From: Candidatus Niyogibacteria bacterium CG10_big_fil_rev_8_21_14_0_10_46_36
GTDB lineage: Bacteria > Patescibacteriota > Minisyncoccia > 1-14-0-10-42-19
Length of the DNA: 64,000 nucleotides
NCBI GenBank assembly: GCA_002772995.1
Contig: PFCO01000005.1
Coordinates: forward strand, 17,001-81,000
Direction: 5' to 3'
Part shown: in pieces, positions 23,516 through 58,120 of the stretch
Position numbering within the stretch: position 1 is the stretch's first letter
How the letters are laid out: each line of letters opens with the position of its first letter
Notes under the pieces: model-generated
The model's database searches: none
What the model saw: the letters and a program-made list of their open reading frames with translations, nothing else
What the model was told of the DNA's origin: nothing
Translations under genes and position numbers: made by a program

Positions 23516-24871
23516 ATGAAAAACATTTCCTTTCTGCAACTTGCCGTATTTTTTGTATTCATCACAGCAATTATTATTGCGTTTCTTATTTTTGCAGGCG
23601 CCCTTCCTGGCCTGCGCGATACGCGGTTCAAAGACCTCAACTCCCCCATTGAGTTTTGGGGCACACTCCCCCGGCAAGTGATTCTCCCCCTAATCGAAGA
23701 ATTTAATGACAAGGAAGAAAAAAATGTCGCTATCACCTACACGCAATTCAGCGAAGAAGAATACCTCCCGAAAGTTGTGGGCGCGCTTGCGGCAGGCACG
23801 GGGCCCGATATCTGGATACTCCCACAACAAAACTTTATTGAAAATCTTCCGAAAGCGCTCCAGCTAGGGCCGAAGTCATACCCGGAACGGGATTTTCGCG
23901 AAACATTTTTTGACGGAGCAGATATATTGCTATGGCCTCCGGGACGGGTTGCCGCCATCCCCTTTGTGTCCGACCAGCTCGTATTGTTCTGGAACAGGGA
24001 ACTTTTCCGTTCGGCAGGTGTTGCAGATGCACCCAAAAATTGGGCGGGATTTCTAGCCGCATCAGAAACGCTCACGCAAAAAAATTCTTCGGGAACAATT
24101 ACGCAGGCGGGTGCTGCTCTCGGTCTTTTTGAAAATATCACACACGCAAAAGACATTCTTTCCCTCTTTTTCCTCCAGGTAAAAAACCCTATTACTTTCC
24201 TCGCAACGCATGGCTCACAAGACAACTTGCAAGTGGACCTAAAAAGCGCAATAAACGATTCATCTTTTGATACACTCCCGGCAGTTGCAGAGAGCATCCG
24301 ATTTTTTAACCAATTTGCAGACCCCCGCAAACAGTCATACAGCTGGACGCGCAACATGCCCGAAGCCCAAGACGCATTCGCACAAGGACGCTTGGCAATG
24401 TATATTGGGTACGGCTCCGAAATAGAAAAGATACGGAACAAAAATCCGCACTTGGATTTTGACATAGCGGAGATTCCCCAAATATCAACCGGGAGCGCGC
24501 ATGTCACCTACGGGAAGCTTCAAACGCTCGTTCTTTCCCGGCAAGCCGAATCGCTCCGCCAATCCGCAGGCCTCCTCTTTATCAATTTCCTTGCCCGTCC
24601 AGAAAACCAATCTTCTATTGCGGAACGGTTCATGCTTGCACCAACCTCACGCGCAGCACTTTTGGCAGGCAACGATAACCCGCTCCTTGCGACAATCTAC
24701 CGCTCTGCCGTCAAGAACACATTCTGGCTTGACCCTGACCCCGAAGGAACCTACACGATTATCCGCGACATGGCGGAACAGGCAAAACTCGAAATAAAAA
24801 GCATTGAAGACATTATCAATGAAGCACACCTCAAAATGCAGCGGCTTTTAGAAGCCATTGTGTTACCGTAA
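23516..24871 (+). CDS. Extracellular solute-binding protein (SBP family 1-like), N-terminally anchored
   Basis: N-terminal TM, then MalE-like features (PKNWAGF, periplasmic-binding fold length). No permease or ATPase partner nearby. Confidence 0.5.
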   Translation: MKNISFLQLAVFFVFITAIIIAFLIFAGALPGLRDTRFKDLNSPIEFWGTLPRQVILPLIEEFNDKEEKNVAITYTQFSEEEYLPKVVGALAAGTGPDIWILPQQNFIENLPKALQLGPKSYPERDFRETFFDGADILLWPPGRVAAIPFVSDQLVLFWNRELFRSAGVADAPKNWAGFLAASETLTQKNSSGTITQAGAALGLFENITHAKDILSLFFLQVKNPITFLATHGSQDNLQVDLKSAINDSSFDTLPAVAESIRFFNQFADPRKQSYSWTRNMPEAQDAFAQGRLAMYIGYGSEIEKIRNKNPHLDFDIAEIPQISTGSAHVTYGKLQTLVLSRQAESLRQSAGLLFINFLARPENQSSIAERFMLAPTSRAALLAGNDNPLLATIYRSAVKNTFWLDPDPEGTYTIIRDMAEQAKLEIKSIEDIINEAHLKMQRLLEAIVLP

Positions 24872-24880: not shown

Positions 24881-26221
24881 ATGAAGCGTTTTTTTGTAAT
24901 TTTTCTTTTCGTTCTCGTCTGCGCCGCCGCATACGGCATTATATTTACAGAACACGCTTTTGCAAAAAGCGTGTATCTTTGCCAAGCCCTTGCTTCCGGC
25001 GAATCAAATGTTGCATACACAAATCCACAGACATGCGACGCAAGCTGTTCAATAAGTGCCTGCATTACACACACTGTCTCAGACAGCACGCAATCTGTGT
25101 ATGTCTGCGATAGCAATCGTTCTATCATTGCCGAAGACGCAGGCGCCTGCGCTCTTCTTTGTAGCGGAAGTGTCACGAACCAATCAAGCTGCACGCGGGC
25201 GAATATTTCAACCGCTTCACCTCCGCCATCCTTACCGGAGGGACAACAACCCGGTGATGGAGGGACAGGAGGATCAGCTCCTCAGCCGGGCGGAGCCCCT
25301 CCAGCTCCGGTAACTACTGACGGCGGCGGATTTGCCCCGTTTGTGCAATGTGCACTAGGGGATGCGGATCCGACCCAATGCAACCTATGCGAGGCGTTTC
25401 GTACAGGATGGCGCGTCGTCCAGTTCCTTTTCTACGCAATCATGCTTCCCCTTGTTGCGATTGCGTTTATTATCGGTGGCATTATTCTCTTGACCGCCGC
25501 AGGAAACGAGACGCGCATTACCCGTGGAAAGTCCATTGTATCAAATACATTTATCGGATTTATTATTGCGTTTGCCGCATGGCTCATCATAAGTACTGTT
25601 ATTGTTAATCTTGCACTAGGTGTAGGCGACATCCAATATTCAGATACGGGAACTACAATTAAATGGTACCAATTCCCTGATTGCACCTCCGGAACTGAAG
25701 TCCCGCTGGATCTTTCTTCTTCGGGCGGTGGAGGAAGCACCTCTAATCCTCCCGACAATGATAACGGAAACGGACAGCAGCCACCACCAGGGGGATCAAC
25801 ATGTTCTCCGGTCTCACAAGGTGTTTGCTCAGTAAACAGCCTCCAAAATACCTGCTTTGGAAATAACGCTCAAAATGCTTCTATTATCTGCCAGGCTGAG
25901 AGCGCTGGCGTGGCCGCAAAACCGAGCGGGAGTGATGTATGCGAAGGAGACGGAAGCGTTGTATCTTGGGGCTTATTTCAAATTAATATTTCCGCTAATA
26001 CGATTGGGGGGCTGGATTGCCCCTCTGCATTTGATAGTGCGTACACTGGAAGTAATCACAACTGCAGAGTTGTGAATCGAGATCTCTACAACCAATGTGT
26101 GGCGGCGGCTCAAAATGCTTCAAGCAATATTAATAAGGCATGTGAAATTTCAAGAGGCGGCACGAGCTTCAATAGATCCGATGCCTGGCAAAACACGGCG
26201 ACCGCCTGTAATATCCCGTAA
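24881..26221 (+). CDS. Tripartite protein: Cys-rich secreted N-domain + VirB2/TrbC-like hydrophobic hairpin + C-terminal lytic transglycosylase (SLT)-like domain
   Basis: Signal peptide, then a Cys-rich region. The hairpin WRVVQFLFYAIMLPLVAIAFIIGGIILLTAAGNETRITRGKSIVSNTFIGFIIAFAAWLIISTVIV matches the four downstream pilin-like ORFs. The C-terminus has CQAESAGVAAKPSGSD...VSWGLFQINIS, the SLT catalytic E-S ... GLxQ pattern. Confidence 0.5.
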   Translation: MKRFFVIFLFVLVCAAAYGIIFTEHAFAKSVYLCQALASGESNVAYTNPQTCDASCSISACITHTVSDSTQSVYVCDSNRSIIAEDAGACALLCSGSVTNQSSCTRANISTASPPPSLPEGQQPGDGGTGGSAPQPGGAPPAPVTTDGGGFAPFVQCALGDADPTQCNLCEAFRTGWRVVQFLFYAIMLPLVAIAFIIGGIILLTAAGNETRITRGKSIVSNTFIGFIIAFAAWLIISTVIVNLALGVGDIQYSDTGTTIKWYQFPDCTSGTEVPLDLSSSGGGGSTSNPPDNDNGNGQQPPPGGSTCSPVSQGVCSVNSLQNTCFGNNAQNASIICQAESAGVAAKPSGSDVCEGDGSVVSWGLFQINISANTIGGLDCPSAFDSAYTGSNHNCRVVNRDLYNQCVAAAQNASSNINKACEISRGGTSFNRSDAWQNTATACNIP

Positions 26222-26271: not shown

Positions 26272-26784
26272 ATGAAAAAACTCATCATCGCTTTTATTAT
26301 CATACTCTTGCTCATACTCGGATTTTTTGCGTACCGCACCCTTTTCTCAACACCTCCGGTAGACATTCCGAACCCGCCGGACGGAGACATAGATACTCTA
26401 TTCCCTATTTCACCTGCAACCCCCACCCCCCCGCTCCCGACCGGAGACAAAATTACAATCACCACACACAAGGGAACCGTAACGACAAATAATTTTTTCA
26501 AAATAGCAAGAGACATCGGGTCTGATGTATACTCACTGGCCGAAACGACTTCATACTACATTACATATTACCGTCCGGACAACAGCTTCCAAATAGCTAT
26601 AGGCTCGCGTCCGGCACAAGCAAGCCGCGCACAGGCAGAAAGCGCATTGGTGAACCTCCTTGGCATAACCGAACAAGAGGCCTGTGGACTGCTTATAAAT
26701 CTCGCTGTCCCCTTTGATGTGGACCCCGCACTAGCAGGCCACAATTACAATCTCAGCTTCTGTCCGGACGGTATTTCATTTTGA
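26272..26784 (+). CDS. Hypothetical N-terminally anchored protein
   Basis: TM KLIIAFIIILLLILGFFAY followed by a P/T-rich linker. Confidence 0.4.
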   Translation: MKKLIIAFIIILLLILGFFAYRTLFSTPPVDIPNPPDGDIDTLFPISPATPTPPLPTGDKITITTHKGTVTTNNFFKIARDIGSDVYSLAETTSYYITYYRPDNSFQIAIGSRPAQASRAQAESALVNLLGITEQEACGLLINLAVPFDVDPALAGHNYNLSFCPDGISF

Positions 26785-27137
26785 CCATGAAAAAAGCCTT
26801 CATAACAATAGCAGTTATCAGTATAGTGTGTTTAAGCGCATATTCACTTGCGCATGCGCAAGAAAGCTTCCAGCTCAATCTATATAATCCGCTCGGAAGC
26901 ATTGATTCGTTCGCCGCCTTGGCGGCATCAATCTTCCGGGCGATTGTTATTATAGCCATCCCGCTTACCGTTATTTTTCTCATCTGGGCAGGCATTCTCT
27001 TCGTTACCGCACGCGGGAACGAAACCCAGCTCGCAAAAGCAAAAAAGGTGTTTGTCTGGTCGGTTATCGGCGCTATGGTAATTGTTGCCGCTTGGGTTAT
27101 CGCAGTCGCCCTTAATAATTCCGTTCAAAATCTATAG
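26781..27137 (+). CDS. VirB2/TrbC-like pilin candidate (paralog 1)
   Basis: Signal peptide ...SLAHA, helix 1, loop TARGNETQLAKAKK, helix 2. 118 aa. Confidence 0.5.
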   Translation: MTMKKAFITIAVISIVCLSAYSLAHAQESFQLNLYNPLGSIDSFAALAASIFRAIVIIAIPLTVIFLIWAGILFVTARGNETQLAKAKKVFVWSVIGAMVIVAAWVIAVALNNSVQNL

Positions 27138-27139: not shown

Positions 27140-27508
27140 ATGCGCATCTCGCTTTTCCACAATAAAAAATCCCTCTCATTGCTCAAATATGCTGCATTTT
27201 TTATACTGAATATAGCGCTATTTCACAGAGCATCCGCCCAAAGCGAGATAGATAACCCCGTAGATTCGGGCACTTTTGGAGAGCTCATAACCAAAATTGC
27301 TGCCATTATTACCCAGGTGACTCTTCCCTTGGTTATCCTTTTTTTGATACTGGCGGGCGCCATGTTTGTATTCGGACGAGGCAACCCCCAGCAGCTCGCA
27401 CGGGCAAAAACGATATTTTGGTGGACTGTCATTGGTGCTGCAATTATTGTCGGCGCATGGTTTATAGCAATCGCAATAGATAACTTTGGAAGAGCGCTTT
27501 CGGAATAA
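27140..27508 (+). CDS. VirB2/TrbC-like pilin candidate (paralog 2)
   Basis: Signal peptide ...HRASA, helix 1, loop GRGNPQQLARAKT, helix 2. 122 aa. Confidence 0.5.
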   Translation: MRISLFHNKKSLSLLKYAAFFILNIALFHRASAQSEIDNPVDSGTFGELITKIAAIITQVTLPLVILFLILAGAMFVFGRGNPQQLARAKTIFWWTVIGAAIIVGAWFIAIAIDNFGRALSE

Positions 27509-27633: not shown

Positions 27634-27990
27634 ATGATACAGACACTCAAAGACACACGCCCGCTTCTTTGGTTTGCGGCACTCGCGGTGCTCATGCTTC
27701 CATTCTTAGCGGAAGCACAAACCATTAACACATTGCTTCAGGATATAAGCGACATCTTGAACACGGTTATTCCGATCTTGATGATTTTGGCAACTCTCAT
27801 CTTCTTGTGGGGTATTATCACCTACATCACTGCAGCAGGAGACGAAGAGAAGCTGAAGAGCGCACGCACATACATCATTTGGGGACTCATCGGACTCTTT
27901 GTAATGGTTGCGGTATGGGGACTCGTACAAGTATTGCTGAACACGTTCGGCGTAGGAACACCGGGAACGCCTCTTGGACCTCAACAATAA
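27634..27990 (+). CDS. VirB2/TrbC-like pilin candidate (paralog 3)
   Basis: Signal peptide ...FLAEA, helix 1, loop AAGDEEKLKSART, helix 2. 118 aa. Confidence 0.5.
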   Translation: MIQTLKDTRPLLWFAALAVLMLPFLAEAQTINTLLQDISDILNTVIPILMILATLIFLWGIITYITAAGDEEKLKSARTYIIWGLIGLFVMVAVWGLVQVLLNTFGVGTPGTPLGPQQ

Positions 27991-28098: not shown

Positions 28099-28434
28099 AT
28101 GAAACATCTGGTAAAAATATATACGATTACTTATGCATTTTTCGGTGCTCACACCGCGCTTGCCCAGCAAGGCGACTACACCATAGAAGGACTAGTGAAT
28201 AAGATAATACAGCTGGTTATCAACCCCCTCATCACCCTTCTCATGGTGGTGGGAACGGTGGTGTTTTTGTGGGGACTCGTCGAATTTCTTATGAGCCCTG
28301 ATAACGAAGAAAAGCGAAGCACCGGAAAGCGCCACATGATGTGGGGTATCATCGGGCTGTTTTTAATGGCAAGTGCATGGGGCATCGTTTATGTCCTCTG
28401 CGACTTTTTTGAGACTTGCAGCCTGATACTTTAA
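28099..28434 (+). CDS. VirB2/TrbC-like pilin candidate (paralog 4)
   Basis: Signal peptide ...HTALA, helix 1, loop SPDNEEKRSTGKR, helix 2. 111 aa. Confidence 0.5.
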   Translation: MKHLVKIYTITYAFFGAHTALAQQGDYTIEGLVNKIIQLVINPLITLLMVVGTVVFLWGLVEFLMSPDNEEKRSTGKRHMMWGIIGLFLMASAWGIVYVLCDFFETCSLIL

Positions 28435-46003: not shown

Positions 46004-48259
46004 ATGCAATTCCGTCTCTCCAACATTCATTTTTTAAAATCAGCGCTGTTCGCCCTCGTGCTCTGCGGAGTCGCAATCACAGGACTTTTCTTGAGTTACT
46101 CGTATGCACACGCACAAGGTCCCATAGGGGGGACTGATCCCGGCCTTGGGATAGAACAAAAGGAATCTACCGATAAAGTAAACGATCTGGGGAAGACGCC
46201 TGATTGCGGGATAAGTAATTTTTATAAAGGGAAGTGTATCGCCCGCGGCCTTGCATGGGTAGCTCAAATATTTCTTAATGTTGTAGGATATGTTCTCATT
46301 TTTTCCGCGTTCATTTTTGACAAAGTAAAAGACATAGCGCTCAATCCGGATACATATAAAAACATAGATGTTGTTAAAAGAGGCTGGACAATGGTTCGGG
46401 ATGTTACGAACATATTTTTTATTTTTATACTTCTTGTCATTGCTATCGCCACGATTCTCCGGCGCGAATCGTATGGAGCAAAACAACTCCTCCCCCGCCT
46501 CATTCTTGTTGCCCTTTTCATCAACTTTTCTTTTACCATAACGCTATACGCCATTCTTCCCGCAAACTCCCTTGCTAATTATTTCACCACAATTATCAGA
46601 ACAAACAATAAAGGAAACTCCATAGACTACTATGCCGATTCTACTGAAGAAGTAGCCCAACACTTCATTGATGGCCTTAAGCCCGGCGAACTCGCTACAC
46701 GATTTGCGAATAGCGACCAAAAAGAAAGATATGAGCTCTTAAATTCGTCCCAAAACCAAATATTGGAAAACAGCGAAAAAGACGACCAGGCAGAACTCAA
46801 TACAGCGATTTATCTTATCATTACAATAGTTTTTGGTATTGCATTAATTCTTATGGCGGCCTTTGTGCTTTTGGTAGCAGCGCTCCTTTTCCTCATACGC
46901 ATAGCGATTCTATGGGTCTTAATGATATTTGCTCCATTGGCATTTCTGTTTATGATACTCCCCCGAACACAAAGCATTGCCCGGGAATGGTGGAGCAGAC
47001 TTATTGACCAAGCACTCTTTCCTGCAGTATTTCTCTTTTTCTTCTTCATTGTTGTATCACTTGGCGCAAGCACATATGTCAAGGACTCTATATTTAAGAT
47101 TAGCGACGGAGATCAGACCAATTTTGTTGCGTTTGTGGCGTATTATCTTATTCAGGTTATCCTTCTGTACATAAGCTTAATCGTAGCGAGGCGTATGGGC
47201 GGGTACGCGGGCAGCACCGCTATCTCTTGGGCGGGATCAGTGCGCAAATTCGCTACGGGTGCAGCTGGAGGTATTGTTGGAGGCGCGGCGGGGTATGCTG
47301 CAAGCAGAGTTGCTGAGCGTGAGGTGGCCAGACGTGGAGATGAAGGCATGGCAGAGCTTAAGACGGGCGGTGCATTCTCGCGTCTCCAAGCGCGCACCAT
47401 AGAAAAATTAGCAGCGCCTCGCGCAAAAGATACCGGGGAGTACGCAAAAAGCATGATGTCTCTTGCCCCGCGTGAATTTATGTCACGCTTCAAGGGCAGT
47501 TCTCTCGCACAGCAAAATGAAATGCTGAAGAACGAAGAAGCAATCAAACGCCTTGCAAAAGCGCGCGACGCAGACAGCACAAGCGCCCAAGACAAGGCTC
47601 ATATAGACTCAATACTTAAACGGCAAAGCTACCAAACGCAAACGAAGTTCTTTAAAGAAGCACCGAAGGCATTTGCTGAAAAACTTGTAAATAACGAGAT
47701 ACGGAAAGATACAAGAGAAGAGGTTCTTAAGACCGCAGACAAGGAAACAATGCAAAAGATAGGAAAAGCAATGGTTGGCATTGATGCCGAAGAAACAAGC
47801 GCTTTGTTTGAATCAATGCAAAAAGAAGGGCTGAAGAAACAATCAAAGGACATGGCAAGCGTCTTACCACAATTCTATCAGGAGGCCGGGATGGAAATTG
47901 GACAAGCGATACGAAATATTGATTTTGAAAAGGTGGATAAAAAAGTTCTTGAAAGTCTTCACGACACACAAACAAAGAATGGCCCCGTGCTCAACAACCC
48001 CTTGGCTCGTTACACAACCCCCGCCCAACGCCAAAAGCTATTAAGCGAATTTACAGAAGCAGGAGAAATCTACTCCAAGGAAATGAAAAGTCTTGGGGAC
48101 ACGAGTAAACAAGTCGCGGCACAAATCAGAAGTGCCGGCGATGCCGCATCCGCAAACAAATTTGAAAATGATAAAGTGTTTGCTGGAGCGCATGGATTAC
48201 ATTCGGAAGACAAAACGCCCTCATATAAATCAACGGACGTAAGCGGAGAAGCAAAATAA
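46004..48259 (+). CDS. VirB6/TrbL-like polytopic membrane protein with long hydrophilic C-terminal tail
   Basis: Signal-like N-terminus, at least 6 TM segments (e.g. LIITIVFGIALILMAAFVLLVAALLFLIRIAILWVLMIFAPLAFLFMIL), then a charged tail of roughly 300 aa. Confidence 0.5.
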   Translation: MQFRLSNIHFLKSALFALVLCGVAITGLFLSYSYAHAQGPIGGTDPGLGIEQKESTDKVNDLGKTPDCGISNFYKGKCIARGLAWVAQIFLNVVGYVLIFSAFIFDKVKDIALNPDTYKNIDVVKRGWTMVRDVTNIFFIFILLVIAIATILRRESYGAKQLLPRLILVALFINFSFTITLYAILPANSLANYFTTIIRTNNKGNSIDYYADSTEEVAQHFIDGLKPGELATRFANSDQKERYELLNSSQNQILENSEKDDQAELNTAIYLIITIVFGIALILMAAFVLLVAALLFLIRIAILWVLMIFAPLAFLFMILPRTQSIAREWWSRLIDQALFPAVFLFFFFIVVSLGASTYVKDSIFKISDGDQTNFVAFVAYYLIQVILLYISLIVARRMGGYAGSTAISWAGSVRKFATGAAGGIVGGAAGYAASRVAEREVARRGDEGMAELKTGGAFSRLQARTIEKLAAPRAKDTGEYAKSMMSLAPREFMSRFKGSSLAQQNEMLKNEEAIKRLAKARDADSTSAQDKAHIDSILKRQSYQTQTKFFKEAPKAFAEKLVNNEIRKDTREEVLKTADKETMQKIGKAMVGIDAEETSALFESMQKEGLKKQSKDMASVLPQFYQEAGMEIGQAIRNIDFEKVDKKVLESLHDTQTKNGPVLNNPLARYTTPAQRQKLLSEFTEAGEIYSKEMKSLGDTSKQVAAQIRSAGDAASANKFENDKVFAGAHGLHSEDKTPSYKSTDVSGEAK

Positions 48260-49186: not shown

Positions 49187-49648
49187 ATGCGACGATTCCA
49201 AGTGCCACAATTTATTGAGGTAGAAGACAAGCTTTTCGGACCTCTCACGCTAAAACAATTTATCTATATCCTTGGAGGGGTGGCGATTACTTTTATTCTT
49301 TGGGTGTCTCTTCCGCTGTTTGTAACAATAATTCTCGGGGTGCCCATTATGGCATTCTCTCTCGGTCTTGCGTTCTATAAAGTGAATGGCGAATCGCTTA
49401 TTACCATTCTCTCACACGGCATCCAGTATCTTTCCCGCTCCCGCCTGTACATCTGGCGTAAAGAGGAAAAAAAGAGGAAAAAACCAAAAGAAGAAATCCT
49501 CCGCAAATCAAAACAAGGACTGGTAACGGTTCCGCGCGGACAAAAAGAAAGCGGACTCTCTAATCTTTCGTGGAGTCTCGATGTGCAAAAGAACTTAAAA
49601 GCAGAGCGCAATATCCCGCAGCCGTTTGAGCTGCGCAATAAAAAATAA
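49187..49648 (+). CDS. PrgI/VirB3-like small membrane protein
   Basis: QVPQFIEVEDKLFGPLTLKQFIYILGGVAITFILW followed by two TM segments. Its position immediately upstream of VirB4 is as seen for PrgI-family proteins. Confidence 0.5.
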   Translation: MRRFQVPQFIEVEDKLFGPLTLKQFIYILGGVAITFILWVSLPLFVTIILGVPIMAFSLGLAFYKVNGESLITILSHGIQYLSRSRLYIWRKEEKKRKKPKEEILRKSKQGLVTVPRGQKESGLSNLSWSLDVQKNLKAERNIPQPFELRNKK

Positions 49649-49649
49649 C

Positions 49650-50342
49650 ATGGAAACACCAGCAGTAAAAAAAAGCAGAGCGGCGCAAAACTTTGTCCCA
49701 CTTCAGGAAATACGGGACGGTATTGCGATTACCAAAGACAAGTCCATGCATGTGGTGCTGATGGCTTCTTCGCTTAACTTTGCGCTCAAGTCCGTGGACG
49801 AACAAGATGCGATTATCTCTCAATATCAAAACCTTTTAAATTCGCTTGATTTTTCTATCCAATTTTTTATTCAGTCCCGAAAACTGGATATTGAGCCGTA
49901 CTTGGACACGCTTCGCGAAGCACTACAGGGCCAATCAAACGAGCTTATAAAAATACAAACCCGGGAATATATTGAATTCGTAAAAAACTTTGTGCAAGCG
50001 GCAAACATCGTTTCAAAGACATTCTATGTTGTCGCTTCATATGTCCCCCCTCTCATTAAGACGAAACGGGGCGGAATGTTGGGGCAGTTTGCTGATATAT
50101 TCAAAAGAAACAAAGAAGACAAAGAGCACTACATTCCGGACGAAGAGTTTGAAGAATACAAAATCCAGCTCTGGCAACGGGTCAATTCTGTAGCAACGGG
50201 ACTCGGGCGCACTGGTGTGCGCGTCGTCCCGCTAAACACCGAGGAGCTCATTGAGCTTTATTATAGCTTGTTTAATCCGGGAGAGATTGAGCGCGGAGGA
50301 ACGCCTCACATAGAAACATCATTAGGAGACGGAGAAGTATAG
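49650..50342 (+). CDS. VirB4 N-terminal-domain-like protein (possible split VirB4 part 1)
   Basis: IAITKDKSMHVVLMASSLNFALKSVDEQDAIISQYQNLLNSLDFSIQFFIQ resembles the extreme N-terminus of Gram-positive VirB4/TraE proteins. ATG at 49650 lies just after the PrgI-like stop. Confidence 0.4.
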   Translation: METPAVKKSRAAQNFVPLQEIRDGIAITKDKSMHVVLMASSLNFALKSVDEQDAIISQYQNLLNSLDFSIQFFIQSRKLDIEPYLDTLREALQGQSNELIKIQTREYIEFVKNFVQAANIVSKTFYVVASYVPPLIKTKRGGMLGQFADIFKRNKEDKEHYIPDEEFEEYKIQLWQRVNSVATGLGRTGVRVVPLNTEELIELYYSLFNPGEIERGGTPHIETSLGDGEV

Positions 50343-50449: not shown

Positions 50450-52276
50450 ATGGTGTTCGGATTTGGAAAAAAGAAAAAAGAAGAAAAGGATGATATCCTT
50501 GCAATATTCCCGGAACAAATCTACGAAACGGGCCTTTTGGAATTACGCGACGTTATCGCTCCCTCCGCTCTTGAGATAAGTTCAAATTTCGTTAAATTGG
50601 GGGAGAAATTTACACGCACAATCTACGTGTTTTCATACCCGCGCTTTTTATCGGTGAATTGGTTCTCCCCTGTTATCAACCTTGACCGTGTTTTTGATGT
50701 AGCGCTTTTCGTTCACCCCATAGATACCGCGGAGGTTTTACGCCAGCTCCAAAAGAAAGTTGCCGAGGTTCAGTCTCAGATTCATATCAGAGAAGAAAAA
50801 GGATTTGTGCGCGACCCTGTACTTGATACCGCATACGGCGACCTTGAAACGCTCCGGGATAAATTACAACAAGCGCAAGAACACTTATTCTCTTTCGGTT
50901 TATATATAACGCTTTACGCAGATTCCATTGAAGAGCTGAATAAAACGGAATCAGAAGTCCGTTCTCTTTTAGAATCAAAGCTTGTGTATACAAAACCTGC
51001 GCTCTTCCGCCAGGAACAGGGGCTTGTTGCGGTTTTCCCATTCGGCTCCGACCAGCTCGAAGTAAACTCGCGCCTGAACTCCTCTCCCCTTTCAAGCATC
51101 TTCCCATTCGTGTCTTTTGATCTTACCTCAAATCGCGGCGTACTATATGGTGTAAACCGGCACAACAACAGCTTGGTGCTATTCGACCGATACAGCCTTG
51201 AAAACTACAATTCCGTTATCTTTGGAAAGGCTGGCGGAGGAAAAAGTTATGCAACCAAGCTTGAGGTGCTCCGAGCGCTCATGTTTGAGGGGGAGGTTAT
51301 TGTAATCGACCCTGAACGCGAGTATGAATACCTTGCCGAAACAACCGACGGAAGATATTTTAATATTTCTCTCTCCTCAAACCACCACATTAACCCGTTT
51401 GACCTTCCTGTCCCGCAGGAAGACGAATCTACCGCTGAGATATTGCGAGAGCACATCATTAATCTTATCGGGCTTTTTCGTATTATGATGGGGGGATTAA
51501 GTCCGCAAGAAGACGCTATTTTAGACCAGGCAATCACCGAAACATACGCCTCGCGCGACATCACCGCAGAATCAGATCTTGCGGGCGTCATTCCTCCGAC
51601 ACTCTCCGACCTTGAGCTCATTCTGGCAAACATGGAAGGAGGCGAATCCCTTGCGATGCGCCTGCGCAAATATACTCAAGGAACATGGGCGGACTTCATC
51701 AACAAACCGACAAATGTGGATATCAACAAAAAAATGGTGGTATTTTCCGTCCGAGACATGTCTGACGAACTCCGGCCGGTTGCCATCTATCTTATCGTGC
51801 ACCATATATGGAATGTCATCCGAAGAAACCTCAAAAAACGCCTTCTCGTAGTGGATGAGGCGTGGTGGATTATGAAAGAAGAAGATGGCGCATCATTCTT
51901 ATTCGGTATCGCAAAACGGGCGCGTAAGTATTACCTGGGAGTAGCAACTGTAACCCAAGATGTGGGCGATTTTTTGCGCTCTCCTTATGGCATACCCATC
52001 ATCACCAACTCTTCCATGCAGCTTTTATTGAAACAGTCTCCCGCAACAATAGACCTTGTGCAGGAAACCTTTAACCTTACCGAGGAAGAGAAGTTCCTCC
52101 TCTTAGAAGCGGAGGTGGGAGAGGGTATCTTTTTTGCGGGTCTCAAGCATGTCGCAATCAAAATTATTGCGTCTTACACCGAAGACCAAATCATTACATC
52201 AGACCCCGCTCAGCTCCTCGCAATCAAAAAAGCGAAGCAAGAATTTAAAAGCACCCAAGGGGAAAGTAACTCATAA
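50450..52276 (+). CDS. VirB4/TraE-type conjugative-transfer-like ATPase
   Basis: IAPSALEISSNFVKLGEKFTRTIYVFSYP, Walker A GKAGGGKSYATK, VIVIDPEREY, Walker B LLVVDEAWWI (DEAW). Confidence 0.75.
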   Translation: MVFGFGKKKKEEKDDILAIFPEQIYETGLLELRDVIAPSALEISSNFVKLGEKFTRTIYVFSYPRFLSVNWFSPVINLDRVFDVALFVHPIDTAEVLRQLQKKVAEVQSQIHIREEKGFVRDPVLDTAYGDLETLRDKLQQAQEHLFSFGLYITLYADSIEELNKTESEVRSLLESKLVYTKPALFRQEQGLVAVFPFGSDQLEVNSRLNSSPLSSIFPFVSFDLTSNRGVLYGVNRHNNSLVLFDRYSLENYNSVIFGKAGGGKSYATKLEVLRALMFEGEVIVIDPEREYEYLAETTDGRYFNISLSSNHHINPFDLPVPQEDESTAEILREHIINLIGLFRIMMGGLSPQEDAILDQAITETYASRDITAESDLAGVIPPTLSDLELILANMEGGESLAMRLRKYTQGTWADFINKPTNVDINKKMVVFSVRDMSDELRPVAIYLIVHHIWNVIRRNLKKRLLVVDEAWWIMKEEDGASFLFGIAKRARKYYLGVATVTQDVGDFLRSPYGIPIITNSSMQLLLKQSPATIDLVQETFNLTEEEKFLLLEAEVGEGIFFAGLKHVAIKIIASYTEDQIITSDPAQLLAIKKAKQEFKSTQGESNS

Positions 52277-52281: not shown

Positions 52282-52770
52282 ATGGCAGAAGAGAACACCA
52301 TTGAACAGGCGCGGTCACTTGCTCTTCAAGAAAGGCGCGCAGAACAAAAAAAGGAACAAGAAAAAAAAAGAGAGGTTCAAAAGATAATGCGCCAAATCAA
52401 CGCTATTAAAGATTCTTTGCCTCCGAAAATAAACCTCACAGAATCAATATCAATGGTCGGATTTGCCTTAATTTCCGATATTGTTGATTGGCTAGTCATT
52501 GGCTCAATACCTATCCTGGGTGATATACTAGACATAGTGACATGGATGATCGTAGGTTTCTGGATGTGGTGGCGTAAACTAAAGCGTGCACCTGGAAGCA
52601 TTGAGGCGGGCATTATAGAATTGATACCGGTTGCTGATATTCTGCCGACATGGACCGCAATAGTTGTTCTTTCTATACTATATAACAATCACAAGCGCGC
52701 CCAGGCAGCAGGCGAGATTAAAAAACTGCACGCTCTCCAAAAACAAGCACAAGCCATAGCCGCGTCTTGA
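52282..52770 (+). CDS. Small membrane protein (charged N-term coiled region + 3 TM)
   Basis: 162 aa with hydrophobic segments ISMVGFALISDIVDWLVIGSIPILG, IVTWMIVGFWMWW, ILPTWTAIVVLSILY. Confidence 0.4.
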   Translation: MAEENTIEQARSLALQERRAEQKKEQEKKREVQKIMRQINAIKDSLPPKINLTESISMVGFALISDIVDWLVIGSIPILGDILDIVTWMIVGFWMWWRKLKRAPGSIEAGIIELIPVADILPTWTAIVVLSILYNNHKRAQAAGEIKKLHALQKQAQAIAAS

Positions 52771-52782
52771 TACATCTTATCA

Positions 52783-53757
52783 ATGAGCATAAAAAAAACA
52801 TTTCCTATACTATGTGCGGCACTTTTTCTTTTGTACACAGCCGCAGCCGCCCAGACCACAAAAGAAGGTACCGCCACAATAATACTGAACCCGCTTTCCC
52901 CCGGTCCAGATGAAGAGGTCACCGCAGAACTCCGCGGTTTTAGTTTTGATATCAATGCGTCCTTTATTACATGGACAAGAAACGGCAGCATATCGCTTTC
53001 AGGGACAGGCTCAAAATCATTCAAGTTCCGCACTGGAGCAATAGGAAAAAAAGAGGTTATAAGTGCAACCGCCCGCACCATTGACGGGAAAGAGATAACC
53101 GCAACCACAGAATTTCTTTTGGGTGATGTTGACCTCTTATGGAAAGCAGACACGACAATCCCCCCGGAATATAAAGGGAAAGCGCTTCCAAGCCCATTTT
53201 CTTCAATAGCCGTTGTCGCTATTCCTCATTTTTCTTCGGGAGGATTTACGAGCTCCGTGAGCGACCTGGAATTTGAGTGGCTCCTTGACGGAAAACGGGA
53301 CGAATCCGCGTCTGGCACCGGAAAAAACACTTATCGCTTTACCGCAGGCGCGTCCCCCACAAATCAGGAAATAACGGCCAAAGTAAAAAATAACGAAAAG
53401 GATATCTCATTTGAAAAAAGCGTATTCATTCCCGTGCACCAACCAGAAGTATTTTTATACGAGGAGCGCCCCTTAGAAGGACCGTTTATGAATGTCGCCC
53501 TATCCCAAAAAACGCTCCACTCAAGTGAAATAAAGGCGTTTCGGGCGGTTCCCTATTTTTTTCCTGAAGAAGATACGCAGTCTCTCTCCTATACGTGGTC
53601 CCAAAATGGAGAAGAAAAAAAGACTTCACCTGTTCATATATTCCAATTTTCATCTGAAAAATCGGGACGCCAAACAATAACGCTCGAGGTGCTTATCCAA
53701 AATACAAAGCACACCATTCAAAAAGCATTAGCAAAAATTGCCATCAATGTTCAATAA
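52783..53757 (+). CDS. Secreted protein with repeated beta-rich modules
   Basis: Signal peptide ...AAAQT. Internal repeat of roughly 100 aa (…RTGAIGKKEVISATARTIDGKEITAT… / …RFTAGASPTNQEITAKVKNNEKDISF…). Confidence 0.4.
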   Translation: MSIKKTFPILCAALFLLYTAAAAQTTKEGTATIILNPLSPGPDEEVTAELRGFSFDINASFITWTRNGSISLSGTGSKSFKFRTGAIGKKEVISATARTIDGKEITATTEFLLGDVDLLWKADTTIPPEYKGKALPSPFSSIAVVAIPHFSSGGFTSSVSDLEFEWLLDGKRDESASGTGKNTYRFTAGASPTNQEITAKVKNNEKDISFEKSVFIPVHQPEVFLYEERPLEGPFMNVALSQKTLHSSEIKAFRAVPYFFPEEDTQSLSYTWSQNGEEKKTSPVHIFQFSSEKSGRQTITLEVLIQNTKHTIQKALAKIAINVQ

Positions 53758-54814
53758 GTGTTTTTATATATTTTTCATAGTGACGTTAATTGTTTTTGCT
53801 CAGCCAGCATTTGCTAGAGAGGTGTGGGTTTGCACGACTCCAATTGGGGGAACAACCGTATTTCTTCAACAAGACTTATGCGCAACGCAATGTAACGGTT
53901 CATGTGCGCAGTCGACTGTTCCCGACAACAATACAACCATTGAAATTTGTCCTATAGACGGGTCGGCATACCCACCCAACCCTACGAACCCGCTCGAGAG
54001 CTGTGCGGCGGCCTGTGGGGCATCGTGCACACAGGCGTCTGTCCCGGGGAGCGCTGGGGGAGCGGACACGCCTACTATTGGGGGGTCTTCTTCATCAAAC
54101 GATGGCGGCGCGCTTTTTATACAATTTTTAAACTGGCTTTTCCCCGCACTTCTTTCTATCGCAGCGCTCCTCGCGTTTGTGATGATCGTGTTTGCGGGAT
54201 TTAAGTGGATTGCCGCTGCAGGAAACCCCGCAGCAATAGAGGATGCGAAAGACATGATAATCAAAGCTGTTTTGGGACTTATCCTCGCCTTCATGTCCTG
54301 GCTTGTTTTAAACACCATCAATCCTAATCTCGTCGGGGGAGGGCTCCCTGGAGGCGGAGGCTTAAACCCCCCGGAGAACGAACAGCCAAACCCTCCCGGC
54401 AACAACCAAGACAACCCCCCTACACCAGGGACGCTTACTGACGAAGAGGCACGAAGCCAGCTTAACGCTGCCGGGATACAGGTAACATCAAGCGGAGGCT
54501 GCAGTGACCAACAAAACCCATCCTGCACATCACTTGAAGGCATACCGGCCTCTACCGTACAAAGCCTTATTTCAATTAAACAGCAATGCGGATGCTCCAT
54601 TACGATAACCGGAGGCACGGAGGTGGGACACCAAACACACGGACCGGGAAAGCCCATAGTTGACCTTTCTTTTAACGAGCCGCTTGCAAGCTATCTGCAC
54701 GATAATGCGTCATCCCTCGGCATAAGCACCATATGTACTGCGCCACAAGATGCCCAATATCGGCATAATTGCAATTTTAACGAGAGCTCACGCCATCTTC
54801 ATGTTTCATTTTAA
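53738..54814 (+). CDS. Tripartite protein: Cys-rich secreted N-domain + VirB2/TrbC-like hairpin + C-terminal putative Zn-peptidase (M15/hedgehog-DD-peptidase-like) domain
   Basis: Signal peptide and a Cys-rich region paralogous to the 24881 protein. Hairpin FIQFLNWLFPALLSIAALLAFVMIVFAGFKWIAAAGNPAAIEDAKDMIIKAVLGLILAFMSWLVL. The C-terminus has SITITGG...GHQTHGPGKPIVDLSF ... HLHVSF, which is H..G...D-like; this assignment is tentative. Confidence 0.45.
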   Translation: MPSMFNKCFYIFFIVTLIVFAQPAFAREVWVCTTPIGGTTVFLQQDLCATQCNGSCAQSTVPDNNTTIEICPIDGSAYPPNPTNPLESCAAACGASCTQASVPGSAGGADTPTIGGSSSSNDGGALFIQFLNWLFPALLSIAALLAFVMIVFAGFKWIAAAGNPAAIEDAKDMIIKAVLGLILAFMSWLVLNTINPNLVGGGLPGGGGLNPPENEQPNPPGNNQDNPPTPGTLTDEEARSQLNAAGIQVTSSGGCSDQQNPSCTSLEGIPASTVQSLISIKQQCGCSITITGGTEVGHQTHGPGKPIVDLSFNEPLASYLHDNASSLGISTICTAPQDAQYRHNCNFNESSRHLHVSF

Positions 54815-54816: not shown

Positions 54817-55962
54817 ATGTCTAAACCGCTCGCCATCGGACTCATCATACTTTTTATAGGCATTATTGCTATCGGTATTGTTTTGCTAGCGTCCCAAAAC
54901 GGCCCGGGAAATGTGCAGGCTCCAGAACCAAACAATCAAGGCTCATCCTTCCCGCAATCACAAACACAAAACCCTCCCCCAACATCAAGCGGCATTCTGC
55001 CGTCTGAACGAGATCTGATTAAAATAACAAACGGAGCAATAAGCGGATTTACGCCTGCTACTGCGGGGGTGCGTTTCATAGAAAAAACAACCGGCCATGT
55101 ATTTGATTCCTCCGCTGACGGACAAACGCAAATAAAAATATCCAACACAACCATCCCTCAAAGTATTGATGCGCTCTGGTCAGAAAATGAAAATTACGCC
55201 ATTTTGCGCTACCGGGAAAACGAAGAAATAAAAACGGTTTTATCGCAGTTCGGAAACTCAAAAACTGACGGGGTTATTCTTCCCACAGACATCCTTTCTT
55301 TTTCATACGCACCGGAGCGTCTTCGTGTGTTTTACACCGTTCCGGGAGACAATGACATCATCGGCATAGCGGCAAGCACCGACAACACCGCTCAAACTCA
55401 AGTTGTCCGCCTCCCTGACACAAATTTTGTCGTTGAGTGGTACAGCCCCCGGGAAATCTCTTTTCTTACTCCCCCATCCGCATTCGCCGCAGGTTTTTTA
55501 TACCGATACAATATTGATGTCGGCTCATTTGAGAAACTATTAGGCAATATACCGGGACTTGATATTGCGTGGTCCAAGAATAAGCGACGAATATTGTTTT
55601 CGCAATCAAACGCGGGAACAGGAAAATCAAATCTCTTCGTGTTTAATCTGCAAACAGGGACGGTTGAGGATCTGGGGACAGAGGGACTCGCGCAAAAATG
55701 CGTATGGGAAGACGACATCGTTGTGTATTGCGGTATACCAACAACAATGTCCCGCGGCTCATACCCGGATGATTGGTTCTCGGGCTCCGTTACATTGAAC
55801 GATCGTATTTGGTGGATAAATACAAGCTCATTCGAAAAAACGATAGTAAAAACACTTCCCGATATTGATGTGGCAGAAATACGCATAAGCGACGCGGCGG
55901 ATCATCTGTTCCTCACAAACAAAAAAGACGGCACACTGTGGAGCGTGCACCTTAACGAATAA
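54817..55962 (+). CDS. N-anchored hypothetical protein (beta-propeller-like extracellular domain)
   Basis: TM LAIGLIILFIGIIAIGIVLLA, then about 340 aa of beta-rich sequence with W/Y-containing repeats. Confidence 0.4.
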   Translation: MSKPLAIGLIILFIGIIAIGIVLLASQNGPGNVQAPEPNNQGSSFPQSQTQNPPPTSSGILPSERDLIKITNGAISGFTPATAGVRFIEKTTGHVFDSSADGQTQIKISNTTIPQSIDALWSENENYAILRYRENEEIKTVLSQFGNSKTDGVILPTDILSFSYAPERLRVFYTVPGDNDIIGIAASTDNTAQTQVVRLPDTNFVVEWYSPREISFLTPPSAFAAGFLYRYNIDVGSFEKLLGNIPGLDIAWSKNKRRILFSQSNAGTGKSNLFVFNLQTGTVEDLGTEGLAQKCVWEDDIVVYCGIPTTMSRGSYPDDWFSGSVTLNDRIWWINTSSFEKTIVKTLPDIDVAEIRISDAADHLFLTNKKDGTLWSVHLNE

Positions 55963-56012: not shown

Positions 56013-56486
56013 TCAAATTGGCTTTATAACAACATACCGATATTCTCCTTCCCCCCTGCTTTCCGTTGCGATATCCGGATACTCCATAAGTGCCGTATGA
56101 ATAATACGCCTCTCAAAAGGAGACATGGGCTTCATCTCAAGCTCCTTTTTAAAATAGCGAACTCGTTGCGCAGACATCCGCGCAAGCTCATACAACTGGT
56201 CTGCTTTTTGTTTGTTATAGTCATTTACATCAACAACAAACTGCATCCGTTCTTTTTGTTCTTCCGGACTAAATCCAGTCTCTCTATCAACAATGCGGCG
56301 CATAACATGATTTATAGCACGCAGATGCGCTCCATTTTCCCCGATAAGAATAGCGGCATCAGAACTTTTTACATTAAATTTGAGCCCATCCAAATATTCC
56401 ACGGCATCCAAAGACGCCGTAACGCCCATCTTTTCGATAAGCGTATGTAATAAAAAAGAAATTTTTTCTTGTGCTTCTTTATCCAT
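56013..56486 (-). CDS. jag: Jag/KhpB (R3H-domain RNA-binding protein)
   Basis: Start at MDKEAQ (ATG 56486) with GGAG upstream. C-terminal R3H: FERRIIHTALMEYPDIATESRGEGEYRYVVI. Confidence 0.75.
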   Translation of the reverse strand: MDKEAQEKISFLLHTLIEKMGVTASLDAVEYLDGLKFNVKSSDAAILIGENGAHLRAINHVMRRIVDRETGFSPEEQKERMQFVVDVNDYNKQKADQLYELARMSAQRVRYFKKELEMKPMSPFERRIIHTALMEYPDIATESRGEGEYRYVVIKPI

Positions 56487-56508
56487 TGTGCTCCGGTGCT
56501 GGAGAGGA

Positions 56509-57243
56509 TTATTGGTTCTCGGGAGCCAGAGCAAACGATTTTTTTCTCACAACACCTTCGTGTAGGATAGCAAAAACATTGGACGTTGTCCAATAGAGTG
56601 CGAGCGCTGCAGGAAAACGTAATGATATCAGAATAATAAATATAGGAAAGATATACTTCGCCTGGCTCATGAATCGCTTTGTCATGTCTTCAGGAGAGCT
56701 CGCCCCCGCTTTTTCTGTGTTGGGAGGGATGGCAAGCTTCATTTGTATAAACTGTGAAAGCCCCGCAAGGATAGCAACAATAAGGCTGGCCTCTGTAAGA
56801 TTTACGAGGGAAAGGAATTGAACATTTATCTTTTCGGGGAGAGCAATAAAAGAATATAGTAAATGTGCCGAATCAGAAATAGATTTAATGAATACCTGGT
56901 ACAGAGCAATGAGCACGGGGAACTGAATAATAAGCATGAGACATCCGGAAAACGGCGAAACACCATGCTGTTTGTATAATTCCATTGTTTTCTGAGCAAT
57001 CTCCTGTTGATTATTCTTATGTTTTTCTCGTATTTTTTTAATTTCTGGCTCAATCTCTCTTATTTTTATTTGGGTAACAATAGAACGATGAGTAAAAGGA
57101 AAAATAACAAACCGAACCAACACAGTAAGAACAATTACCGCAAGCCCCAGATCATGAAGAGGCATCAGGCCGGTAAGAAATACAAGCGCATTGAAGAGCG
57201 GCTGAAAAAAGAAATCGTTATAGATAGAAAGAAGAAATCCCAT
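56509..57243 (-). CDS. yidC: Membrane protein insertase YidC (short Oxa1-type)
   Basis: LAVIVLTVLVRFVIFPFTHRSIVTQIK...LYKQHGVSPFSGCLMLIIQFPVLIALY. Confidence 0.85.
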   Translation of the reverse strand: MGFLLSIYNDFFFQPLFNALVFLTGLMPLHDLGLAVIVLTVLVRFVIFPFTHRSIVTQIKIREIEPEIKKIREKHKNNQQEIAQKTMELYKQHGVSPFSGCLMLIIQFPVLIALYQVFIKSISDSAHLLYSFIALPEKINVQFLSLVNLTEASLIVAILAGLSQFIQMKLAIPPNTEKAGASSPEDMTKRFMSQAKYIFPIFIILISLRFPAALALYWTTSNVFAILHEGVVRKKSFALAPENQ

Positions 57244-57251
57244 GGTATGTA

Positions 57252-57479
57252 TTATGGAAGAGGGTCATGCCCTCCTTTTGAAAACGGATGGCAGCGAAAC
57301 ACTCTTCTTGTGGTATAAAAAAAAGCCTTAAAAAAACCGAAACGCTGAAACGCCTCAAGGCCATACTCAGAACAAGACGGAAAAAAGCGGCATGACGGCG
57401 TCCGCTTTATAAATATATTTTTGTCAGGAGAAAGGATTTTTTGATAGAGAGCAATGCTCTGCCGAACAACACTATTCAT
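57252..57479 (-). CDS. yidD: Membrane protein insertion efficiency factor YidD
   Basis: SIALYQKILSPDK...CRFFPSCSEYGLEAFQRFG...HPFSKGGHDPLP. Confidence 0.85.
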   Translation of the reverse strand: MNSVVRQSIALYQKILSPDKNIFIKRTPSCRFFPSCSEYGLEAFQRFGFFKAFFYTTRRVFRCHPFSKGGHDPLP

Positions 57480-57813
57480 ATAACAGGGATTGTTTTTTCA
57501 AAACATATAATACTGCGTCTTCTATATCCTGTCTTTTACGAAACTGCTTTTGAAAAACAATAATAATATCATACCCCTTTTTGATGGAAGAGACAAAACG
57601 AAACAGGATATCTTTTGTTTTTCTGCGCATGGTGTTGCGGGTAACGCTTTTTTTTGCAACCTTAGAAGATATCACCACAGCAAAGCGCGGGCGGGGTTTG
57701 TTATTCTTCTTATAATATAAAGTAATGCCACTTCCTTTTTCTCTTTTCCCGCGCACGAAAACAAGCTTCACCTCATACGAGGAAAGACGATATTCATGAG
57801 GGAGAGCGCTCAT
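57472..57813 (-). CDS. rnpA: Ribonuclease P protein component
   Basis: Start chosen at ATG 57813 (MSALPHEYRLSSYEV...); the track's 57828 start is TTG. K/R-rich RnpA motifs (RLRFAVVISSKVAKKSVTRNTMRR). Confidence 0.8.
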   Translation of the reverse strand: MSALPHEYRLSSYEVKLVFVRGKREKGSGITLYYKKNNKPRPRFAVVISSKVAKKSVTRNTMRRKTKDILFRFVSSIKKGYDIIIVFQKQFRKRQDIEDAVLYVLKKQSLLYE

Positions 57814-57820
57814 ATGTCCT

Positions 57821-57958: not shown

Positions 57959-58120
57959 GTGTTTCTTACTTTACCACAGAATTTTATATTTACAATATTA
58001 ACAGCTCATCCACAGATTGTTAACATAAGTAGTAACCTTATCGGGGTTTCTTTATAAAAAACTGCGGGTGCTATAATACCATTATATCTATTCTTTTTTT
58101 TATTCTAAACAGACCTGCTT

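Follow-up and report, generated by a model that had tools for sequence, protein, structure and literature searches.

Predicted cell-wall hydrolases carried on VirB2-type pilin domains in a Patescibacteria genome

We analysed a 64,000-nucleotide chromosomal stretch (the window) of Candidatus Niyogibacteria, which belongs to the candidate phyla radiation (CPR)/Patescibacteria, and focused on two of its open reading frames (ORFs). Each encodes a signal peptide, two 4-Cys repeats, a VirB2-type pilin hairpin and an enzyme-like C-terminal domain. ORF A (24881..26221, + strand; 446 aa) ends in an SLT_3 lysozyme/lytic-transglycosylase-like domain, while ORF B (53738..54814, + strand; 358 aa) ends in a LAS-type zinc-peptidase domain. 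The two correspond with 100% identity to COU47_02285 and COU47_02430, respectively. On balance, we lean toward the interpretation that both proteins are cell-wall hydrolases of a VirB2-pilus-bearing, Gram-positive-type type IV secretion system (T4SS), built on a pilin chassis rather than being free and VirB1-like.

An earlier annotation made from the letters alone (the sequence-only reading) had described two paralogous, three-part proteins, and both genes and all their parts were recovered here. The domain order is the same in each: signal peptide, Cys module, Gly/Pro-rich linker, hairpin, a second low-complexity linker and a Cys-containing C-terminal domain. According to BLASTP (E = 4e-9), ORF A and ORF B share 23% identity over a match that takes in the signal peptide, the Cys module and the hairpin and keeps the cysteines in register; their C-terminal domains are unrelated to each other. 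The term paralogous therefore holds for the N-terminal ~240 residues but not for the C-terminal domains. Similarly, the three-part architecture describes ORFs A and B but is not a rule of the family, as most homologs are two-part and the N-terminal 4-Cys module is lineage-specific. The motifs on which the earlier annotation had drawn are located at residues 338-369 of ORF A (QAESAG...SWGLFQIN) and 288-309 of ORF B (ITITGG...THGPGKPIVD). With its TTG start at 53738, ORF B overlaps the gene upstream of it. The NCBI model begins three codons later; ORF B probably starts at this ATG (53747) and comprises 355 aa. A gene-fusion artefact or frameshift was rejected because the architecture is kept in hundreds of independent assemblies.

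The hairpins of ORF A (25397..25633, + strand; residues 173-251) and ORF B (54098..54340, + strand; residues 121-201) each contain two hydrophobic segments (176-211 and 218-251 in A; 124-163 and 172-196 in B). Together with the signal peptide and a short polar loop, these reproduce the VirB2/TrbC layout. Both proteins scored above the 26.6-bit gathering threshold of the Pfam T4SS_pilin family, PF18895: ORF A at 33.8 bits (E = 3.5e-8; residues 183-239) and ORF B at 36.7 bits (E = 4.3e-9; residues 130-194). These scores fall within the range of 31.6-48.1 bits obtained for four stand-alone VirB2-type pilins encoded on the + strand at 26781..27137 (42.6 bits), 27140..27508 (31.6 bits), 27634..27990 (45.1 bits) and 28099..28434 (48.1 bits). 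PF04956 (TrbC) was matched above cutoff by the second stand-alone pilin only (30.2 bits) and by neither fusion, and ORF B scored below the threshold of the NCBIfam ICE_MMCAP2_0565 pilin-like model (25 vs 40 bits). Type IV pilus (PilA-type) pilins were ruled out, as the matches were to the VirB2-type families PF18895 and PF04956.

The six hairpins aligned in register with pairwise identities of 18-28% (mean 24%), and a hidden Markov model (HMM) built from them retrieved exactly these six proteins from all six-frame ORFs of the window. The sequence-only reading thus counted and assigned the pilins correctly; its description of the fused hairpins as nearly indistinguishable from stand-alone pilins is accurate for their profiles but not for the sequences themselves. 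Judged by these signatures, the hairpins of ORFs A and B are VirB2-type pilin domains. Within the ORF B family, the mean pairwise identity was 36.6% for the hairpin and 37.2% for the catalytic domain, both above the mean of the window's six hairpins. Being as conserved as the enzyme, the hairpin appears to be more than a generic anchor. Locus L006 contains two adjacent fusions (9119-9973 and 10001-11119) with near-identical hairpins (~90% by eye) and different C-terminal modules, one an unknown Cys-rich domain and the other SLT_3. This pair suggests a recent event of duplication or gene conversion in which the cargo was swapped, and the pilin hairpin thus behaves as a modular carrier.

The C-terminal domain of ORF A (25796..26218, + strand; residues 306-446; 10 Cys) is SLT-like, an assignment that draws on transitive homology to Pfam SLT_3 and on the alignment of its catalytic motifs. 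Among the 36 members of the ORF A family, T4SS_pilin was present in 34, SLT_3 (PF18896, 'Lysozyme like domain'; gathering threshold 27 bits) in 31 with a best E of 2e-12, and SLT (PF01464) in seven. The ORF A domain was 38-77% identical to each of 35 homologs in the domain alignment, and P0015, which lies above the SLT_3 cutoff, was 58% identical to ORF A according to BLASTP. Residues E340, S341, G364, L365, F366 and Q367 as well as four cysteines were invariant across the family, and L402-Y403 was near-invariant.

In hhalign comparisons, the cropped family profile placed 'IICQAES...GLFQIN' onto 'IIAIES...GLMQL' of EmtA, in which the Glu is E64 (P = 0.005). The motif also aligned with 'ARQES...GLMQI' of Slt70 (E505 in the precursor), and unrelated controls yielded P values of at least 0.28. 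A profile of four Escherichia coli family-1 lytic transglycosylases matched the ORF A family with P = 0.001, as compared to 0.36 for the control, the ORF B domain. ORF A carries the motif of these enzymes, namely a Glu in an E-S pair that closes a helix, with G-L-x-Q after it: in the AlphaFold2 model of the domain, E340 is at the C-terminal end of helix 27-41. Together, these data uphold the SLT-like domain of the earlier annotation, including an invariant candidate catalytic Glu. The domain had no NCBIfam match, and PDB sequence searches using either the single domain or the family profile returned chance matches only. A homolog search with the cropped SLT_3 profile brought up only further proteins from CPR, none of which bridged the gap to the canonical SLT families. 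Finally, plasmids yielded no tblastn match to the ORF A domain, and no link to plasmid VirB1 genes emerged at BLAST level.

The C-terminal domain of ORF B (54434..54811, + strand; residues 233-358) has the alpha/beta fold of LAS (Hedgehog/DD-peptidase) enzymes together with their zinc pattern, H-x(3-7)-D followed by a C-terminal H-x-H. The near-invariant residues of its family are T291-G-G-T-E295, G297, H298, H301, G302, G304, D309, H353 and H355, of which H301, D309, H353 and H355 were near-invariant in 112 sequences and mostly invariant in a 27-sequence domain alignment. According to hhalign, H298, H301 and D309 correspond to H110, H113 and D120 of MepA, where H113 and D120 are reportedly zinc ligands. 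For VldE, experiments support H301, D308 and H375 as the zinc ligands, the last of these lying in an H373-x-H375 motif (PMC11667670), and the H301/D309/H353-x-H355 pattern of ORF B is the same. These data support the earlier call of a Zn-peptidase-like domain, with conserved candidate catalytic His and Asp residues, at the level of fold and active site.

The M15, VanY or hedgehog/DD-peptidase profile match that had been anticipated for this domain was not obtained: the curated M15, VanY and Peptidase_M15_x sequence models matched neither ORF B nor its family. More broadly, the ORF B protein, its isolated domain, the family profile and the actinobacterial homologs yielded no Pfam, NCBIfam or PDB-sequence match, and PDB searches with the family profiles and a cropped LAS profile returned chance matches only (tankyrase, G-protein-coupled receptors, X11). 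Using tblastn, the domain had no match in phages, and no BLAST-level link to phage tape-measure or endolysin genes emerged. Overall, the data support assignment of the ORF B domain to the LAS/M15-like zinc-peptidase fold, as a sequence family of its own outside the M15 Pfam families.

At their N-termini, both proteins have the hydrophobic signal peptide that had been proposed. That of ORF A (24881..24964, + strand; residues 1-28) ends in HAFA before a Lys, the A-x-A motif being read from the sequence, and that of ORF B ends in AFA before an Arg. The Cys-rich modules that follow (24965..25207, + strand, residues 29-109 in ORF A; 53816..54043, + strand, residues 27-102 in ORF B) align with each other. 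Each contains 8 Cys arranged as two copies of [VI]x[VI]C-x13-17-C-x3-C-x3-9-C (residues 34-61 and 76-104 in A; 32-56 and 71-97 in B), and ORF A has three further Cys right ahead of the hairpin, in agreement with the earlier description. Searches with the full proteins and isolated sub-domains gave no Pfam or NCBIfam match for these modules or for the C-terminal domains other than chance-level hits to TIL and Tt1218. The double 4-Cys module is rare: besides ORFs A and B, it occurs in P0002, which has four copies, in P0003 and in a few more proteins. The linkers of the fusion family are Gly/Pro/Thr/Ser-rich, have a median length of ~27 aa and vary in length and sequence. Of 265 pilin-domain proteins in the wider set, 51 had Cys-rich N-terminal extensions, of several unrelated kinds, ahead of the hairpin (e.g., P0071, P0065, P0004 and P0160). 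The N-terminus of P0160 has up to 34 Cys, and that of P0004 includes a tandem 'SPESCAAKGQVYNPNLKICGDPLP' repeat.

An exhaustive search of 1.84 billion representatives with a cropped LAS-domain profile yielded 2,223 clusters when the threshold was E <= 1e-3 and 1,335 when it was E <= 1e-10. The pilin hairpin was present in 229 of 241 collected LAS-domain proteins (95%), always N-terminal to the enzyme, and the exceptions were mostly fragments. We also scanned one genome per species using seven close LAS-domain sequences as the query, which confirmed 561 stretches. Among the best 80 of these 561 loci, nine were CPR-type, and all nine were pilin-fused; the other 71, from Actinomycetota, Chloroflexota and Deinococcus, had the domain, mostly in short proteins, with neither a pilin hairpin nor VirB4 nearby. 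The SLT_3 branch to which ORF A belongs looks CPR-restricted.

Pilin-free LAS domains occurred at loci L018-L076 and L079-L090 (e.g., L027 9824-10384 and L024 9293-10384), their carriers including many Streptomyces, Amycolatopsis, Kribbella, Kutzneria and other Actinomycetota as well as Ktedonobacter, Thermosporothrix and Deinococcus. Where the fusions have HxH, the pilin-free versions terminate in 'NHWD'. In Ktedonobacter, and seemingly in Thermosporothrix as judged by eye, the LAS domain follows PG_binding_1 repeats, identified in the former using Pfam; their presence beside the domain supports a peptidoglycan substrate. Four loci in metagenome-assembled genomes labelled 'uncultured Bdellovibrionales' (L013, L014, L015 and L078) had CPR-type pilin-LAS genes, the ~380-aa partner described below and CPR-like origin synteny. 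These taxonomic labels may be wrong.

ORF B is part of a Gram-positive-type T4SS cluster on the + strand. The cluster comprises genes for a 751-aa protein (46004..48259; no Pfam match; homologs at the same position in L001, L012 and L016), a PrgI/VirB3-like protein (49187..49648; PF12666), a TraC-like N-terminal part of a split VirB4 (49626..50342; weak PF11130 match, with PF26593 TraC-like in L001) and a VirB4-type ATPase (50450..52276; P-loop_TraG, AAA_10 and CagE_TrbE_VirB). These are followed by two small genes (162 and 324 aa; 52282..53757) that are partly conserved in related loci, then by ORF B and a gene for a ~380-aa protein with an N-terminal transmembrane segment (54817..55962). ORF B is thus three genes downstream of VirB4, and this gene order is repeated in L001, L012 and L016. 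The ~380-aa gene lay directly downstream of pilin-LAS in 10 of 12 CPR loci, and as it follows pilin-LAS even where VirB4 is not adjacent, the two form a conserved two-gene module. The ~380-aa protein had no Pfam or PDB match and could be a regulator, an immunity factor or a peptidase partner. Its gene was also seen at L001 (10897-12036), L003 (11162-12301), L012-L017 and L078.

Several other features surround this cluster. The apparent split of VirB4 into a TraC-like and an ATPase ORF recurs in L001 (226 aa and 606 aa). Southlakia VirB4 may be split as well, SEML1_0009 (a 293-aa hypothetical protein) beside SEML1_0008 (VirB4) being likened to it by position. Upstream of the cluster are a TSP3 (thrombospondin type 3)-repeat protein (43754-44740) and an overlapping 453-aa ORF (44640-46001); L001 has a LysM-LysM-CHAP hydrolase at this position. 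Downstream is the replication origin region (56013..60811), with jag (KH/R3H), yidC and rnpA on the minus strand followed by dnaA and dnaN, which begin at 58121. The GC content falls to 0.37-0.40 in this region, and the cumulative GC skew has its minimum at 58-60 kb. We considered whether the low-GC stretch at 56-62 kb is a mobile island and ruled this out, as it is the replication origin. A class A penicillin-binding protein is encoded at 60856-63465, indicating that the organism makes peptidoglycan.

At the ORF A locus, a solute-binding protein gene (SBP_bac_1/8; 23516..24871, + strand) is located just upstream, and a gene for a conserved ~170-aa membrane-anchored partner (26272..26784, + strand; no Pfam or PDB match) lies directly downstream, followed by the four-pilin array. 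This arrangement is shared with L005. The locus is flanked by gyrA, a methyltransferase gene and the solute-binding protein gene on one side and by polA on the other. A membrane-anchored protein of ~145-170 aa follows pilin-SLT_3 in all three loci (the window, L005 10909-11403 and L006 11139-11570) and ends in a conserved '...LSFCPxG'. Upstream, the window and L005 (8201-9496) have in common the solute-binding protein gene with gyrA a gene or two before it; a small pilin gene intervenes in L005.

Since the two proteins would together supply a glycosidase and a peptidase, as do the T4SS hydrolases PrgK, TraG and CwlT, we read them as T4SS wall-opening enzymes. In the mechanism we propose, each protein would be exported by Sec and its signal peptide cut after AFA. 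By analogy with VirB2 and TraA pilins, the hairpin would reside in the membrane with its loop inside, and the disulfide-rich N-terminal module and the enzyme would face outward on flexible Gly/Pro/Ser/Thr linkers. To cut glycan strands, ORF A would use an SLT/lysozyme-type site with a single Glu, E340. ORF B would cut stem peptides or cross-links using a LAS zinc site that has H301, D309 and H355 as its ligands and H353 and H298 in auxiliary roles. The hairpin would bring both enzymes to the site of pilin extraction and polymerisation on a VirB3/VirB4/VirB6-like platform, such that peptidoglycan would be opened exactly where the pilus or channel passes. Delivery or anchoring of hydrolases through the pilus-assembly pathway, as the sequence-only reading had suggested, is plausible and agrees with topology and synteny.

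A role of these enzyme classes in a T4SS would be consistent, by analogy, with the essential enzymes of the Southlakia T4SS cluster. Among the essential genes of this organism are two located downstream of virB4, one for a peptidase and one for a lysozyme homolog (PMC12102498). SEML1_0007 has a C-terminal Hedgehog/DD-peptidase domain, SEML1_0006 has lysozyme-like and cysteine-proteinase domains, and both are essential for epibiotic growth (PMC10633639 Table S2).

Several observations weigh against a T4SS-dedicated pair of hydrolases. Neither full-length ORF A nor its isolated domain matched Pfam SLT_3 or SLT, even at E <= 10, so that the PF01464 match that had been expected was found in seven family members but not in ORF A itself. 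The HMM-HMM signal of the ORF A domain spans only ~40 residues at 7-21% probability, and a Foldseek search of its AlphaFold2 model (predicted local distance difference test score of 93) against the PDB found no structural match. ORF A is also ~24 kb from VirB4, amid housekeeping genes, and the stand-alone actinobacterial LAS homologs occur without T4SS context, indicating that the LAS enzyme itself is not T4SS-specific. Of eight well-flanked pilin-LAS loci, VirB4 was within 10 kb, directly upstream, in four (the window, L001, L012 and L016, but not L003 or L013-L015), while in all eight the pilin-LAS pair was within ~10 kb of jag, yidC, rnpA and dnaA. The adjacency of VirB4 and ORF B could therefore partly reflect clustering near the origin. 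These contexts would suit housekeeping autolysins, in which the hairpin is a mere two-pass anchor, the enzymes serve CPR growth or division, and proximity to the T4SS is incidental. Such a role would also fit the closest solved relative, VldE, an L,D-endopeptidase that acts in stress and at the division site (PMC11667670). We nevertheless judge this explanation improbable: a generic anchor would not keep pilin-signature residues or match PF18895 as real pilins do, the pilin array directly follows ORF A in L005 as in the window, almost all collected LAS proteins retain the hairpin, and the essential Southlakia cluster holds the same two enzyme classes.

Two further alternatives take the pilin domain at face value and differ in the fate of the fusion. 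VirB2- and TraA-type pilins have both termini facing the exterior of the fibre, so N- and C-terminal additions could be displayed on it. The fusions might accordingly be minor pilins that present the Cys-rich, adhesin-like N-terminal module and the hydrolase on the outside or tip of the pilus and digest the host wall, which we consider rather unlikely. The bona fide pilin hairpins, conserved as strongly as the enzyme, would suit such subunits, as would the flexible linkers, the variable N-terminal modules that resemble diversifying surface modules, and the two L006 fusions with different cargo. CPR bacteria live as epibionts, and on the host both their T4SS and the hydrolases linked to it are essential: growth on the host depends on a T4SS with VirB2-like pilins in the one species tested genetically (PMC10633639). 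With a similarly low probability, pili of the CPR T4SS could be filaments armed with enzymes: the fusions, with their variable Cys-rich, adhesin-like heads, would lie in the fibre or cap it, bring a lytic transglycosylase and a LAS endopeptidase to the host wall and drill at the contact site on which epibiotic growth depends. The conserved membrane protein downstream of each fusion could then be an immunity or control factor. Against this, a VirB2-type lattice could not accommodate a globular domain of 130-150 aa on every subunit, leaving only sparse or terminal incorporation, the loop of the ORF B hairpin is net acidic, unlike most pilin loops of the window, and the results do not tell host from self peptidoglycan as substrate. 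According to reviews, a CPR T4SS pilus is yet to be imaged (PMC12102498; 2025 FEMS review). Finally, the fusions could be pro-pilins from which the enzyme, and perhaps the N-terminal module, is removed during maturation to yield a soluble wall hydrolase and a short pilin. C-terminal processing is established for pro-pilins of the VirB2 family (RP4 TrbC and Ti VirB2), the exposed linkers could be protease sites, and the stand-alone pilins terminate soon after helix 2. However, helix 2 is followed by no conserved cleavage motif beyond 'NTINPxL', the linkers differ in length and sequence, and Pfam scans of both clusters, several genes of which had no Pfam match at all, revealed no TraF-like maturation peptidase. 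We regard cleavage as highly improbable.

The interpretation of ORFs A and B as T4SS hydrolases on a pilin chassis bears on a gap in what is known of Patescibacteria. A survey of 3,035 Patescibacteria genomes using PF18895 and PF04956 described VirB2 arrays and origin-proximal T4SSs; most Patescibacteria with VirB2 lack a recognisable VirB1, and it was proposed that pilus biogenesis may not need it (PMC12102498). Our results suggest that T4SS hydrolases are present in these bacteria but hidden, SLT_3 behind a pilin hairpin and the LAS domain outside Pfam and NCBIfam. T4SS-linked wall hydrolases, VirB2 pilins, and SLT and LAS enzymes are already known, and the pilin-SLT_3 combination exists in Pfam annotations. 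What is new is the identification of the second fusion as a peptidase of LAS type, belonging to a large family without any model, the conserved gene pair of pilin-LAS and the ~380-aa protein beside VirB4 and the origin, and the functional reading that the fusions fill the 'missing VirB1' gap. Pilin-hydrolase fusions are not mentioned in PMC12102498, PMC10633639, the 2025 FEMS review or the literature searched on PF18896/SLT_3, and the design, though widespread, has apparently not been described. The statement that it is not a standard arrangement is accordingly correct with respect to classical T4SSs and the literature, but the design is not rare, given the Pfam combination and the large pilin-LAS family of CPR.

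As Patescibacteria represent a large share of bacterial diversity, the fusions are testable candidates for how a T4SS crosses peptidoglycan, whether of the producer or of the host. The LAS domain adds a large family, with about 2,200 representative clusters including Actinomycetota, and a VirB2 pilin serving as a modular carrier of extracellular domains is relevant to pilus biology and surface display. Were the filament indeed armed, it would represent a new mode of T4SS enzyme delivery, in which Sec export is followed by display through the pilin pathway with no coupling protein, and the fusions would be functional stand-ins for the missing VirB1 and VirB5.

Of the known systems, CPR proteins that combine PF18895 and PF18896 in Pfam are the family of ORF A itself, and L005 has the same order of solute-binding protein, pilin-SLT_3, ~165-aa gene and pilin array. 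ORF A differs in falling below the SLT_3 threshold and in adding the double 4-Cys module, which is found in its closest relatives only. Motifs I (E-S) and II (G-L-x-Q) of ORF A align with those of the VirB1-type lytic transglycosylases (Agrobacterium VirB1, R1 P19 and pKM101 TraL), Slt70 and EmtA/MltE, and the presumed role of the VirB1-type enzymes in opening peptidoglycan for a T4SS or pilus is shared. By contrast, the VirB1-type and E. coli enzymes are soluble periplasmic proteins or lipoproteins without a pilin fusion. ORF A further differs in its 9-residue Cys-containing insert between the motifs, its 10 cysteines and the lack of a Foldseek match to solved lytic transglycosylases, the likeness extending over ~40 residues only.

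Functional parallels are PrgK (pCF10), TraG (pIP501) and CwlT (ICEBs1), membrane-tethered hydrolases of monoderm MPF-FATA-type T4SSs, which combine a glycosidase with a peptidase (PMC12102498). The T4SS of the window, with PrgI and a TraC-like/VirB4 pair, is of the same system type. Whereas PrgK, TraG and CwlT are single polypeptides with one N-terminal transmembrane helix and a CHAP, NlpC/P60 or LytM peptidase, the activities predicted here are divided between two proteins, with a LAS-type enzyme as the peptidase and a VirB2 pilin hairpin serving as the anchor. SEML1_0007 and SEML1_0006 of Southlakia epibionticum, likened by annotation, share the phylum, the T4SS type, the two enzyme classes and the position downstream of virB4 near dnaA. 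They are larger (1113 and 643 aa), lack an annotated pilin domain and, in SEML1_0006, add a cysteine-proteinase domain. Xanthomonas-type VirD4-dependent T4SS toxins were ruled out as a model by the Sec signal peptides and by the absence of coupling-protein and relaxase families from Pfam scans of the T4SS cluster; Patescibacteria T4SSs generally lack both (PMC12102498).

Relative to the LAS/M15-like peptidases (VldE MT3 of Streptococcus pneumoniae, MepA, VanX/VanY, LdcB and phage L-Ala-D-Glu peptidases), ORF B stands apart in lacking a detectable sequence-profile match among all Pfam, NCBIfam and PDB entries. Its family is distinguished by a 'TGGTE-GH' signature, H-x7-D rather than x6, a disulfide-rich composition and its large number of representative clusters. 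Finally, the VirB2, TrbC and TraA pilins share with ORFs A and B a signal peptide, a pair of hydrophobic helices joined by a short polar loop, and membership of PF18895, and the array of four divergent pilins beside a fusion resembles the VirB2 arrays of Patescibacteria (PMC12102498). The classical pilins are ~70-120 aa long and carry no extra domains, whereas the fusions add an ~80-aa N-terminal module and a ~130-150-aa C-terminal module to the same hairpin.

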